Assembly: GCA_963712115.1 (NCBI GenBank) | Contig: CAVQGX010000030.1 | Location: 128,001-192,000 of the forward strand | DNA length: 64,000 nucleotides | Source: an uncultured delta proteobacterium | Lineage (GTDB): Bacteria; Desulfobacterota; Syntrophobacteria; BM002 | Direction: 5' to 3' | In this document: in pieces, positions 1,827-4,769 of the stretch | How positions within the stretch are numbered: position 1 is the first letter of the stretch | Layout of the letters: each line of letters opens with the position of its first letter | Translations under genes and position numbers: made by a program | Notes under the pieces: model-generated | What the model saw: only the letters and a program-made list of their open reading frames with translations | Database searches by the model: none | Told to the model about the DNA's origin: nothing

Positions 1827-2390
1827 ACAATTTACTGAACCACCGAGCTATTTGATATCACAAGGAACAAAGTATCTACAGTTTATTTACATTTTTTTAC
1901 AATTAATTAACAATAAGTTTTTCCATAACAGTAATCTACAGTATATGTACAACTTTGGTACAAATTAGAAACGAATAAATAACAACTTTAAAATAAAAAA
2001 AATTTTATATTGACAATTTGATATGTTTTGAGAGAATGCGTTCATTATTGAACATATATATACCTACCAAGTGATCTAATATCGACTTAAGTTGGGCACA
2101 ATGCGAGTCTTCAATCGCGCTAATGTCAACTGCTTCCAGTAAACTTGATTGAGTTATCAACCCATACTTCTATCTCTACTGTCGGTGGCAGACTGTAACC
2201 GAGTTGGCGAAGCTATGCTCCAGTTACGCTGGAGCACGAGACGGGAGGTCGGGCAAGACGGCGATACGAGAAATCTCTTCAACGGATTTGACTATTTGAC
2301 AATTCGACGAATTGACCTAACTGTGAGCTGTGAGCTTTCAGCTGTGAGCTAAGTTGACAACTTTGACGACTTGAAAGATCGGAGAAAAAA

Positions 2391-2597
2391 ATGATCCTCC
2401 GCTTATGCCTTTCATGTAATTATCACGAAATAAGAGAAGAGCTCGAAACCAGGGTGACCTATTGTCTTAAGGAAAACTGCTGGTCTCAGTACTCGAAGTG
2501 TGTGGCTACAAGAGCCATAGAGCGATTCTTGGAACAAGAGCGCATCGAAGTGCCACCATTCTTTTCGGCCTTATCTCACTTATACAGCGAGTTCTAA
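2391..2597 (+). CDS. Small Cys-rich hypothetical protein
   Basis: 68 aa, GGAG 6-7 nt upstream of ATG, CxxC plus CxxxxC and a further C. Confidence 0.6.
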   Translation: MILRLCLSCNYHEIREELETRVTYCLKENCWSQYSKCVATRAIERFLEQERIEVPPFFSALSHLYSEF

Positions 2598-2751
2598 CCT
2601 GATTATTTCCTGTTCTGCCATCTGTCATCCGCCCTCTGCTTTCTGACTTCTGTTCTCTAATCTCTGACCTCTGGTTAAATGAAAAACGGACGACCGTGGT
2701 GTATAAAGGAATTACCGAAAAACCAAAACACACCACAAAGTAGGTCGTCCA

Positions 2752-3804
2752 ATGAAAAAGGTAGCATATCTGGCTATAGATGTACATGCAGGTCACTGTG
2801 TTCTCGGCCACATGGATTTTGATGGAACTTTTATTGGAAACAGAAGATTTCCCACATCCGAGCGACACATTATCCAGGCCCTCAAAGCTGTTAAAGCAAA
2901 GGAGAAGTATCTGGCACTGGAAGAAAGTAACCTTGCCTATTGGGCTGCCCAGGTGGCCAGACCCTATGTAACCGAAGTCATCTCCTCTGATCCCAGGGAG
3001 AACGCCTTGATCTACCGCAGTGCCAACAAGAGAGATAAGGTTGATACCCACAAGTTGTGCCGTCTTCTTAGACTGGGGGAGTTGAACCGGGTTTATCATG
3101 CTGAAAATGATGACCGCGCCATATTTAAGTCGGCGGTTCAACACTATATAGATCTTCGCGATCAGCAGGTGGTGTTGAAGAACAAGATTAAAGCTATGTA
3201 CCGTCACTGGGGTGTTATTGAGGTAACAGGCCAAGCCGTCTATGGCACCAGCCGTGATGATTATCTGCAAAGGGTGAAGCATCTTCATATTCGCAATCAA
3301 CTTCATCGTCTCTATTGTCTAATGGATGAAACCGAGTCCATGCAAAAAAGAGCTCTTAAGGCAATGAAGCAACTCGGGCGTAAATATCCTGAGATCAAAG
3401 AATTCGAAAAGATGCCTGGCATAGGGGAGATTCTTTCCCATATTTTCGATGCCTTCATTCAAACTCCCCACCGCTTTGCTCATAAGCGTAAACTCTGGCG
3501 CTATTGCCGCTTAGGGATCACCGATCGCTCCAGCGACGGTAAACCGCTGGGATTTAAACGGCTGGACAGATCCGGTGTCTCAGAACTCAAAGCCTTGAGC
3601 TATCGAGCATGGCTTGGTGCCATGGGAGGCGATAACGAGGTTAGAAAGTTTTACTCACGCTCCTTGCGGCAGACTCTAAGCCATGTCCATGCCAGACTCA
3701 ATACCCAGCGAAAGATCATTGCCGTCATGTACGGCATGTGGAAAAGAGGAGATGCCTATAGGCCTGAACTGTTCCTGGATTCGCCACAGATGAACGTTGT
3801 CTAA
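2752..3804 (+). CDS. IS110-family transposase/recombinase (DEDD)
   Basis: AIDVH, LEES, KRDKVD catalytic residues; MPGIG; C-terminal SSDGK serine motif. Confidence 0.93.
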   Translation: MKKVAYLAIDVHAGHCVLGHMDFDGTFIGNRRFPTSERHIIQALKAVKAKEKYLALEESNLAYWAAQVARPYVTEVISSDPRENALIYRSANKRDKVDTHKLCRLLRLGELNRVYHAENDDRAIFKSAVQHYIDLRDQQVVLKNKIKAMYRHWGVIEVTGQAVYGTSRDDYLQRVKHLHIRNQLHRLYCLMDETESMQKRALKAMKQLGRKYPEIKEFEKMPGIGEILSHIFDAFIQTPHRFAHKRKLWRYCRLGITDRSSDGKPLGFKRLDRSGVSELKALSYRAWLGAMGGDNEVRKFYSRSLRQTLSHVHARLNTQRKIIAVMYGMWKRGDAYRPELFLDSPQMNVV

Positions 3805-4176
3805 AGGAGACAGCACCATTAACTGGACTGAAGTGCGCAGACCAGTCCGGCGGATCCGGGTTGCCGGGTGAGTCTCGATCAATAGAAGTCTAGCCACCCC
3901 CGATGCTTCGGGGCGACAGGCTCGACCTCTGGATAGGCCCCCGGCCTTTATACCCAATGTGACCCTAGTCATTTTCCTCTCAGGAAAAACAGACTCATAT
4001 ATGTGACTGGAAAGAACACGGCCCGCACTGTCATGTTGATCCGATCACCCGACTGTGTATGCACACTTCATAAGTTAAGTGATGGTCTGCTCCCACATGG
4101 CCAACAAGGCTCACGGTCGTCCTGTGAAGTCAAAAACTCGATTTCACGGTAATGGATAAGTTTTTCTTTACTTCAC
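3805..4176 (+). ncRNA. Putative bridge/seek RNA region of the IS1111-type element (exact ends unknown)
   Basis: About 370 nt non-coding with hairpins; contains GACCTCTG (3924-3931, target plus core) and ATATGTG (3999-4005, donor plus core). Confidence 0.6.
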
Positions 4177-4475
4177 TTTTCATATGTGACCTCTGATAAA
4201 AACGACTTCAACGATTTAACTAATTGCCTAGGTAATAGGTGATGGGTTATAGGTTTTTGCCTCTTACCCATGACCTTTTGTTCCTTTCCCGCCTGTCTCG
4301 CATTTTTCGCTTTATACCTACCGCTTACTGCTTACCGCGTAACCTTTACTAATACCTAATAATCTTTTCCCACATCTCTTTTTCCCCACCCTACAGCCGC
4401 AGCAAATCACCCACCTCTGAGCAGCCTTCAATTCCATCCACCGCATAACCCTTAATAAAATCAGTTAGGAAAGCA

Positions 4476-4550
4476 TTTTTACCCATTTTATACCGGGTAT
4501 GTTTTGGGTAAATTTACCCATTTCTTACACGGTAAAAAATGGGTAAATTT
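4476..4550. promoter_or_regulatory. Array of TTACCCA/TGGGTAA half-sites, candidate transcription-factor binding sites
   Basis: Perfect 16-bp palindrome TGGGTAAATTTACCCA at 4505-4520 flanked by two more half-sites. Confidence 0.4.
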
Positions 4551-4769
4551 GTGATTCAAGGTTTGAGGTAAAGATTTTTTGCTGTTTGCTGCTTAGAGCG
4601 TGTTAATTGTCGTTCATGAGAGGTTAGGAGATTTGTTCTTGAGCGTTGAGCTGTTAGTTGTTAAGGTCAAAACTTCTACAACTTGACCTAATGGGCGACG
4701 TCTATGCTACTATTTGAGATGATACTTATGAGACTTTAAATATCCGCTTACTGCTTATTAGAAAAAGAG

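Follow-up and report, generated by a model that had tools for sequence, protein, structure and literature searches.

The locus and its transposase

We describe an insertion sequence at positions 2674..4186 of a 64,000-nt stretch of DNA from an uncultured delta proteobacterium (GTDB lineage Desulfobacterota; Syntrophobacteria; BM002; assembly GCA_963712115.1). This whole stretch, which we call the window, is C30:128001-192000, where C30 stands for contig CAVQGX010000030.1 in a genome of 70 contigs and 4.9 Mb. The element holds a transposase gene (2752..3804, 350 aa) and, 3′ of the gene, a non-coding region with a conserved RNA structure, and it sits among tandem heptamers of the ACCTCTG/CAGAGGT family. 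We consider it highly probable that this is an active or recently active element of the IS110 superfamily, with an IS1111-type layout, whose guide RNA targets adjacent heptamers at a TG dinucleotide. All features given below are on the forward strand.

The transposase combines a DEDD/RuvC-like N-terminal domain with a PF02371 C-terminal domain. It exceeds the cut-offs of both Pfam models, PF01548 (38.3 bits, 29 required) and PF02371 (33.4 bits, 21.3 required), and it bears a weak but specific resemblance to two PDB transposases, those of IS621 (E = 7e-5) and ISCro4, in their C-terminal domains. An alignment of 12 relatives leaves D10, E57, D95, D98, S261, and G263 invariant. By analogy with IS621, we take D10, E57, D95, and D98 to be the DEDD tetrad and S261 to be the serine. 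The C-terminal motif, LGITDRSSDG, is without the proline of G-x-x-P-x4-S/T-G and is a partial match to the IS1111 motif GL-P----S(t)G. Among 72,556 plasmids the protein has one match only, at 21.7% identity. Judged by its domain matches, the transposase is a divergent member of the IS110 superfamily.

Boundaries and copies

The element is flanked by a single TG on each side, TGACCTC-TG|GTTAAATG...CATATG|TG-ACCTCTG. The left junction (2660-2686) reads atctcTGACCTC-TG-GTTAAATGAAAAA and the right junction (4177-4197) reads TTTTCATATG-TG-ACCTCTGat, exactly as a preliminary description of this DNA had written them. The wider context is atctc TGACCTC TG | GTTAAATGAAAAAC at the start, 2674, and CTTTTCATATG | TG ACCTCTG ataaaa after the end, 4186. 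From left to right, we have the left target flank TGACCTC (2665..2671), the left core TG (2672..2673), the body of 1513 bp (1515 with one core TG), the right core TG (4187..4188), and the right target flank ACCTCTG (4189..4195). Across the family, TG abuts the left end in 44/46 distinct left junctions and adjoins the right end in 34/36 distinct right ones.

The preliminary description called the element IS1111-type, and its layout bears this out even if the transposase is very divergent. The non-coding region downstream of the gene is the longer one, 382 nt (3805-4186) against 78 nt upstream (2674-2751), which is an IS1111-type feature. The 78-nt left end contains the arms ATGAAAA (2679-2685) and GGACGACCGTG (2688-2698). 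The first of these, 5 nt from the left end, pairs with TTTTCAT (4177..4183), 3 nt from the right end; in the IS1111 group, inverted repeats of 7-17 bp lie subterminally, with short extensions beyond them, and this 7-bp pair is of that kind. The second arm is 100% complementary over its 11 nt to CACGGTCGTCC (4112..4122), which is kept in 4 aligned close relatives. Both ATGAAAAAC at the left end and CTTCACTTTTCAT at the right end are conserved across the family.

The genome has two further full copies, winB (C30:40892-42407) and winC (on contig C47), with the same span as the window copy and 99.5-99.8% identical. A fourth copy of 0.6 kb, winE (C30:24571-25182), is without the transposase gene and retains the ends and the non-coding region. 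All four end-bearing copies read TGACCTCTG|GTTAA on the left, so that the left flank TGACCTC is identical in 4/4, and CATATG|TG on the right. What follows this last TG varies, as expected of target DNA: ACCTCTG in the window copy and in winC, ACTTCTG in winB, and ACTCCTG in winE; that is, TGACYYCTG. In winB and winE the flanks beyond TG are not duplicates of each other, and the 9-nt identity between the flanks of the window copy stems from the tandem target. Rather than the unrelated flanks or different boundaries that would have told against the element as first described, we find the same boundaries and heptamer flanks in these four copies, in 3 congeneric genomes, and in 56 metagenomic loci.

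The winE copy (L005/L006) lies in a TGACCTC array. Its non-coding RNA region is whole, at 99% identity, and its left end has diverged (79% over 75 nt, with one A fewer in GTTAATG). By comparison with ssr9 of ISPpu9, winE may be a non-autonomous, RNA-only copy. There is also an internal fragment, C30:230902-231910 (L004; query 437-1445), at 99.7% identity, which includes the guide region and has neither end. Relative to the window copy, winB shows 3 substitutions and 3 inserted bases clustered at 2708-2720, in the left-end leader, plus 2741 T>G; contigs from public sequencing runs likewise show 2741 T>G, and 2790 A>C. Thus, two leader variants circulate. The winB copy sits ~45 nt upstream of a promoter-like site, TTGACA-17-TATAAA, and a tRNA gene (GGGGACGTAGCTCAGTTGG...), both conserved in 8 congeners. 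Next to the element, the assembly has overlapping contig ends, the opening 613 nt of C46 being 100% identical to part of C47.

Relatives at 88-91% protein identity are carried by 3/17 other genomes of the genus. A search of 122 genomes of the class found no match at E <= 1e-50 outside the genus, that is, in the remaining 104. Metagenome contigs from the Joint Genome Institute provide 56 further loci, mostly at 63-99% identity. In public records, the genus loci belong to metagenome-assembled genomes with the labels Syntrophobacterales, Desulfobacterota, or Desulfobacteraceae. For the analysis of guides we used the 4 copies of the genome itself and 61 loci (L034-L094), from which duplicates and loci lacking a part were dropped. 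In many of these relatives the left and right flanks are unrelated beyond TG.

A conserved RNA structure with three variable blocks

The 382-nt non-coding region folds at -138.7 kcal/mol (z = -4.45), and 0/100 shuffles fold as well. RNAalifold, given 37 sequences, reports 59 base pairs, 11 of them with compensatory changes. The RNA structure is therefore conserved. A consensus outer stem, from ~3843 to 4055, encloses a 5′ domain and a 3′ domain, and we regard the span 3843..4055 as a candidate seekRNA/bridge RNA. Aligning 4 congeneric non-coding regions, we observe that nearly all differences fall in three blocks, 3887-3889, 3924-3927, and 4006-4007. The same three blocks vary in a larger alignment of 50+ sequences, and the remainder of the RNA is conserved.

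Each of the three blocks coincides with a stretch that can be matched to DNA at the ends of the element. The first, the T guide AGAAGUC (3884..3890), in the 5′ domain, is the complement of the top-strand core G and right flank; the match is perfect for ACTTCT and has one mismatch for ACCTCT. The second, the B guide GACCUC-UG-G (3924..3932), has the same sense as left flank, core, and first base of the element, its first six bases (3924-3929) being the last 6 nt of the left flank. The third, a left-donor guide AUAUG-UG plus AC (3999..4007), in the 3′ domain, has the sense of the right end of the element and the TG, with two further bases that vary along with the right flank.

The T and B guides flank a hairpin, one per side. 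Because one word makes up both flanks, the guides are complementary to each other at 6/7 positions, and in the RNAalifold consensus they are partly paired. We also considered 3966-3976 as a guide and rejected it; it is a hairpin stem with compensatory changes.

The order of the two target guides is that of the IS1111 group, with the top-strand match before the bottom-strand match. IS1111-type elements are described as having an RNA that lies 3′ of the gene and two matches in this same order, overlapping at the junction (PMC11187229, PMC11208160).

As an example of what the guide blocks do at short evolutionary distance, the window copy and winC differ at 3/1513 positions, and 2 of these differences are in guide blocks, one at 3887 of the T guide and one at 4003 of the donor block. 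The winE copy carries the guide variant of winC, and thus two guide variants, with A or C at 3887, coexist in one genome.

Covariation between guides and flanks

If the RNA reads the target, then guides and flanks should change together. They do. Comparing the B guide with the left flank in 42 distinct pairs, a mean of 4.83/6 positions are compatible, against 3.73 (max 4.19) when shuffled. For the T guide and the right flank, with 36 distinct pairs, the mean is 5.69/7 against 4.32 (max 5.00) when shuffled. In both cases 0/20000 shuffles reach the observed value, in a test inflated by the common descent of guides and targets among relatives. We nonetheless discern several separate switches.

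For the T guide, we observe AGACGAC with right flank TCGTCTG (L034), AGAGGAC with TCCTCTG (L039), TGGTGTC with ACACC (L063), TGGTTTC with AAACC (L064, L065, and L071), and TGAGGCG with CGCCTC (L073). For the B guide, GCCCTC accompanies left flank GCCCTC (L046), CGTCTT accompanies CGTCTT (L084), and AACACC accompanies GACACC (L063-L071). Variants of the donor block follow the end of the element in the same way, with ATACG and ATGTG found where the right ends are CATACG and CATGTG.

Another way to extract this signal is to compute the mutual information between each variable column of the RNA and each variable position in the flanks or ends, which we did for 32 non-redundant loci. The guide-block positions rank at the top. 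Base 1 of the right flank equals position 4006 in 26/32 loci, left-flank position -5 equals 3925 in 22/32, left-flank position -3 equals 3927 in 26/32, and right-end position -2 equals 4002 in all 32/32. Base 2 of the right flank is complementary with 3887-3889.

The preliminary description had proposed that the element is programmed by an RNA to use the heptamer system, and the covariation of guides and flanks supports RNA programming of target choice. The rival proposal, in which the protein or sequence homology alone chooses the target and the guide-like blocks are leftovers or chance matches, could appeal to the imperfect pairing, to the 0 Rfam matches, and to RNA-library contigs that do not count as expression, and we give it the least credence of all, with the guide blocks being the sole variable spots in a conserved structured region, changing with the flanks across relatives 63-99% identical, and the transposase staying similar while the targets differ (GACACC/AAACC vs GACCTC).

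Some loci deserve mention on their own. The near-identical L036, L048, L049, and L050 have a common right flank, TGTGTCCTCTGTGCCTCTGTGGTGAA, and differing left flanks. At its left junction L048 has 9 extra nt (CGTGATCTC) relative to L036, the flank otherwise matching; possible explanations are changes in the array at the junction and a right flank that is itself repetitive. The right flank of L042 (TTCACCTACTTCGG) is not heptamer-like and misfits its T guide, which expects TCGTCT; a rearrangement beside the element is possible.

Heptamer arrays as a probable multi-copy target

The word ACCTCTG/CAGAGGT is in excess in this DNA. The exact 7-mer is found 23 times in the window, whereas 200 shuffles average 7.46 and never exceed 14. 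About 9/21 of its clusters in the window lie in heptamer arrays, and Tandem Repeats Finder (TRF) reports 11 rows with CAGAGGT-type units in addition to the insertion site itself, so the preliminary count of at least ten spacers with this family was about right. Genome-wide, TGACCTCTGACCTC is found 27 times where 0.03 are expected. By a strict census, period-7 arrays number 369 in all contigs together, 35 of them on C30, a shuffled copy of which has 0.

Both flanks of the element are copies of one tandem unit, and therefore any array of at least two suitable units would offer a site; the intergenic heptamer arrays of the genus would therefore form a multi-copy target. To put a number to it, GACCTCTG is present 381 times in the genome, and in 104 of these it is followed by a right flank at most one mismatch from a T-guide complement. 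Four are occupied. Because there are ~104 candidate sites of which 4 are occupied, the multi-copy part of what had been called a multi-copy safe harbour is supported by the site counts. As for the word safe, the intergenic position of the arrays suggests that insertion there may be harmless or neutral to the host.

The window is rich in repeats in general. TRF finds 112 rows of period 7, 8, and 9 arrays in its 64 kb, many of unrelated units, which form an intergenic mosaic (e.g., TACCGCT, GGCATAG, AATTAGAG, AACGATTTC, GCGAGACGC). To the right of the element, at 4476-4547, there is a ~72-nt palindromic repeat found at 75-97% identity, on both strands, in many contigs of nearly all 17 congeners. 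Two other dispersed repeats, one of ~187 nt (L003 747-935; query 48-235) and one of ~97 nt (L002 1250-1345; query 451-546), are present in many copies at 88-98% identity in all genus genomes. These two, which lie beside other copies of the element, look like miniature inverted-repeat transposable elements.

Empty sites, mobility, and expression

The preliminary description had suggested looking for empty sites in reads. We mapped contigs of four public runs on 2300-4600, with the caveat that contigs cannot show rare forms. A joint 2664->4187, with a skip of 1522 nt and 9 ambiguous letters, is present in one contig of the DNA run X2 and in one of the RNA-library run X17. The X2 contig has a depth of 55.5, with sides of 153 and 414 nt and 3 and 28 other letters, respectively. 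This proves presence/absence polymorphism at the window site.

The site orthologous to that of winB is empty in 6 congeners, with arrays of 4, 4, 4, 4, 5, and 6 units, and two of these genomes (G012 and G014) hold TGACCTC-TGACTTC, the exact two-unit target predicted for winB. For the window copy we found no orthologous empty site in 17 congeneric genomes, where the spacer between the MFS and MscS genes is not conserved, and the arrays in G016, G012, and G007 differ too much from that of winC to be aligned in search of an empty site.

No circle joint was found in the contigs of the four runs, a type of data unable to show rare forms. In its integrated form, the element has 0 promoter-like sites by a sigma-70 scan. 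Junction promoters occur in this element family, and joining the ends here would create a possible one, TTTACT (4167-4172)-17 nt-TTAAAT (2675-2680), with a TG before the -10 and a score of 8/12. Contigs of RNA libraries X15 and X17 cover 3847-4089 and 3719-4196, respectively.

A model and its alternatives

We can now put the pieces together. In the model we favor, the 3′ non-coding region encodes a structured guide RNA, a candidate seekRNA/bridge RNA, which would be expressed and processed from it. The T guide (3884-3890) would pair with the right target flank on its top strand, and the B guide (3924-3932) with the left flank and TG core on the bottom strand; the third block (3999-4007) matches the right end of the element itself plus the core. 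The donor would be a circular form with junction CATATG-TG-GTTAAATG, and the target the TG between two adjacent heptamers, TGACCTC-TG-ACYYCTG. Recombination of TG with TG would then insert the element with no target duplication. Point changes in the guides would retarget relatives to other heptamer variants.

Several observations weigh against this model, besides the inflation of the shuffle tests by common descent. Regarding the protein, the NCBIfam model transpos_IS110 (NF033542) scores 82 bits, below its cut-off of 140, in a full-length match (6-333). Regarding the RNA, an Rfam scan of 2500-4400 at E <= 1 gives 0 matches, and no right-donor guide, that is, a block covarying with the left end, emerged from the mutual-information scan or from examining the non-coding region in its 5′ portion. 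The pairing of the guides is imperfect on average: the window T guide has 1 mismatch to its own right flank, winC and winE have 1-2 mismatches, and L042, L081, and L087 fit poorly. The X17 contigs from the RNA library also hold the flanks and the empty site, so that DNA carry-over is possible, and the RNA-library contigs do not count as expression. And the sole empty allele of the window site, atctc-TGACCTC-TG-ataaaa, has one heptamer where the model predicts two, the skipped 1522 nt exceeding the model's 1515 by 7. The preliminary description had expected that excision would leave TGACCTC-TGACCTC-TG; an empty allele does exist, but the double heptamer was not seen. We think that polymorphism in array length is the likely cause, because arrays vary among congeners at the winB site and the X17 contig also is without 7 nt in another array, at 2321.

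That same empty allele is the starting point of the alternative that fares best, which we nevertheless consider improbable. It proposes that the element extends a further 7 nt leftward (left end = ACCTCTGGTTAAATG..., core TG at 2665-2666), that a single TGACCTCTG would suffice as target, and that 3924-3935 would read the donor. Under it, an empty allele with exactly one TGACCTCTG and a skip of 1522 nt, as seen in X2 and X17, is just what one expects. The 7 nt beside GTTAAATG are identical in all 4 genome copies while the right flank is variable, L048, L049, and L050 carry ATCTCTG beside the left end with three different flanks upstream, and 3924-3935 matches 2666-2677 at 11/12. But the TG that it requires 7 nt further left is present in only 22/46 distinct left junctions, when the abutting TG is present in 44/46. 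It would leave no segment of the RNA reading the left flank. The near-identical L034 and L044 differ in the very 7-mer beside the left end (TCTTCTG and TCGTCTG), and the two-unit TGACCTC-TGACTTC at the empty winB site of G012 and G014 is against it as well. That array lengths do change is seen from the 4 to 6 units at the winB site among congeners and from the 7 nt missing at 2321 in X17.

In another alternative, insertion itself duplicates a heptamer. The guides would read both strands of one TGACCTCTG, and a staggered exchange would leave a 9-bp direct repeat, so that arrays gain units. The window copy is indeed flanked by a 9-bp direct repeat of TGACCTCTG with one copy in the empty allele, the T and B guides are complementary at 6/7 positions such that one unit could serve both, and L048 has its 9 extra nt over L036 at what seems the same site. 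Yet in winB and winE the two "repeats" are not the same (ACTTCTG and ACTCCTG on the right vs ACCTCTG on the left), as they would be after a duplication, and flanks unrelated to each other beyond TG are common among the relatives. PMC11187229 and PMC11208160 describe a conservative exchange at a short core. Overall, we see very little chance that insertion duplicates the heptamer. We know of no IS110-family element that makes such 9-bp duplications.

One may also go beyond the favored model, and propose that the clade co-diversifies with the heptamer repertoire of its hosts, with single-base guide changes retargeting copies even inside one genome (2 of the 3 differences between the window copy and winC being in guide blocks), that insertion and excision may alter the number of units, and that the element helps to generate and remodel the arrays, beyond using them. 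The change in unit number is suggested by the filled allele, which exceeds the sole empty allele by one heptamer, and by the extra nucleotides of L048 relative to L036. We regard all this as an unlikely extension.

Comparison with known systems

RNA-guided IS110/IS1111 recombinases are being developed as programmable tools for genome insertion. The clade described here provides ~40 natural guide/target pairs on one conserved scaffold, at 63 to 99% protein identity, and such a series shows which guide positions are read and what number of mismatches is tolerated. It extends the targets of the family from palindromic repetitive extragenic palindromic (REP) sequences, attC sites, and transposon ends to short tandem repeats with identical target halves. 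It also links hundreds of 7-9-nt intergenic arrays in the host genus to a mobile element that uses them, a link that helps to account for the contig breaks found when genomes of these sediment bacteria are assembled from metagenomes.

The closest comparison is with the IS1111-family seekRNA elements (ISEc11, ISPa11, ISKpn4, and ISPst6; Siddiquee et al. 2024, PMC11187229). They too have a DEDD transposase of 330-350 aa, a downstream non-coding region, and subterminal inverted repeats with short terminal extensions, and each lineage has its own target. The difference is that here the target consists of adjacent tandem-heptamer units, so that the two guides are mutually complementary. The protein is also distant from catalogued members, with a motif, LGITDRSSDG, that is without the proline.

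With the bridge RNA recombinases of the IS621/IS110 group (Durrant et al. 2024, PMC11208160; PDB 8wt6), the element shares a single RNA with target-reading and donor-reading segments, a 2-nt core common to donor and target, and the absence of target duplication. There are also handshake-like guide extensions that match the post-exchange partner DNA (here, 3932 G and 4006-4007 AC). The element differs from IS621 in having its RNA 3′ of the gene instead of in the left end and in its TG core; the transposases align in the C-terminal domain only, and no right-donor guide was found.

The REP-targeting IS110-family element ISPpu9 (PMC12288879) is alike in using a dispersed multi-copy intergenic repeat as target and in having orphan copies of the RNA gene without a transposase (here, C30:24571-25182). 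The target here is instead a short head-to-tail tandem repeat, not a palindromic REP, and the host is an uncultured member of the Desulfobacterota.

Regarding the arrays themselves, the STRR sequences of cyanobacteria are further intergenic heptanucleotide direct repeats. The TAACTGA repeats of Beggiatoaceae (MacGregor 2015, PMC4679880) similarly form many short intergenic arrays of 7-nt units; the portions of that report available to us draw no link to an insertion sequence, and here, by contrast, many unrelated units of period 7, 8, and 9 coexist.

A literature search over open-access papers and bioRxiv, with subscription journals and ISfinder outside its scope, found no IS110/IS1111 element targeting heptanucleotide tandem repeats. 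We propose that the mechanism is the known seekRNA/bridge-RNA one, and that this is a divergent new insertion sequence of IS1111-type layout with heptamer arrays as its multi-copy target. What is new is the class of target, adjacent units of a tandem heptamer, and a divergent clade of elements from sediment Desulfobacterota, with a natural series of reprogrammed guides.

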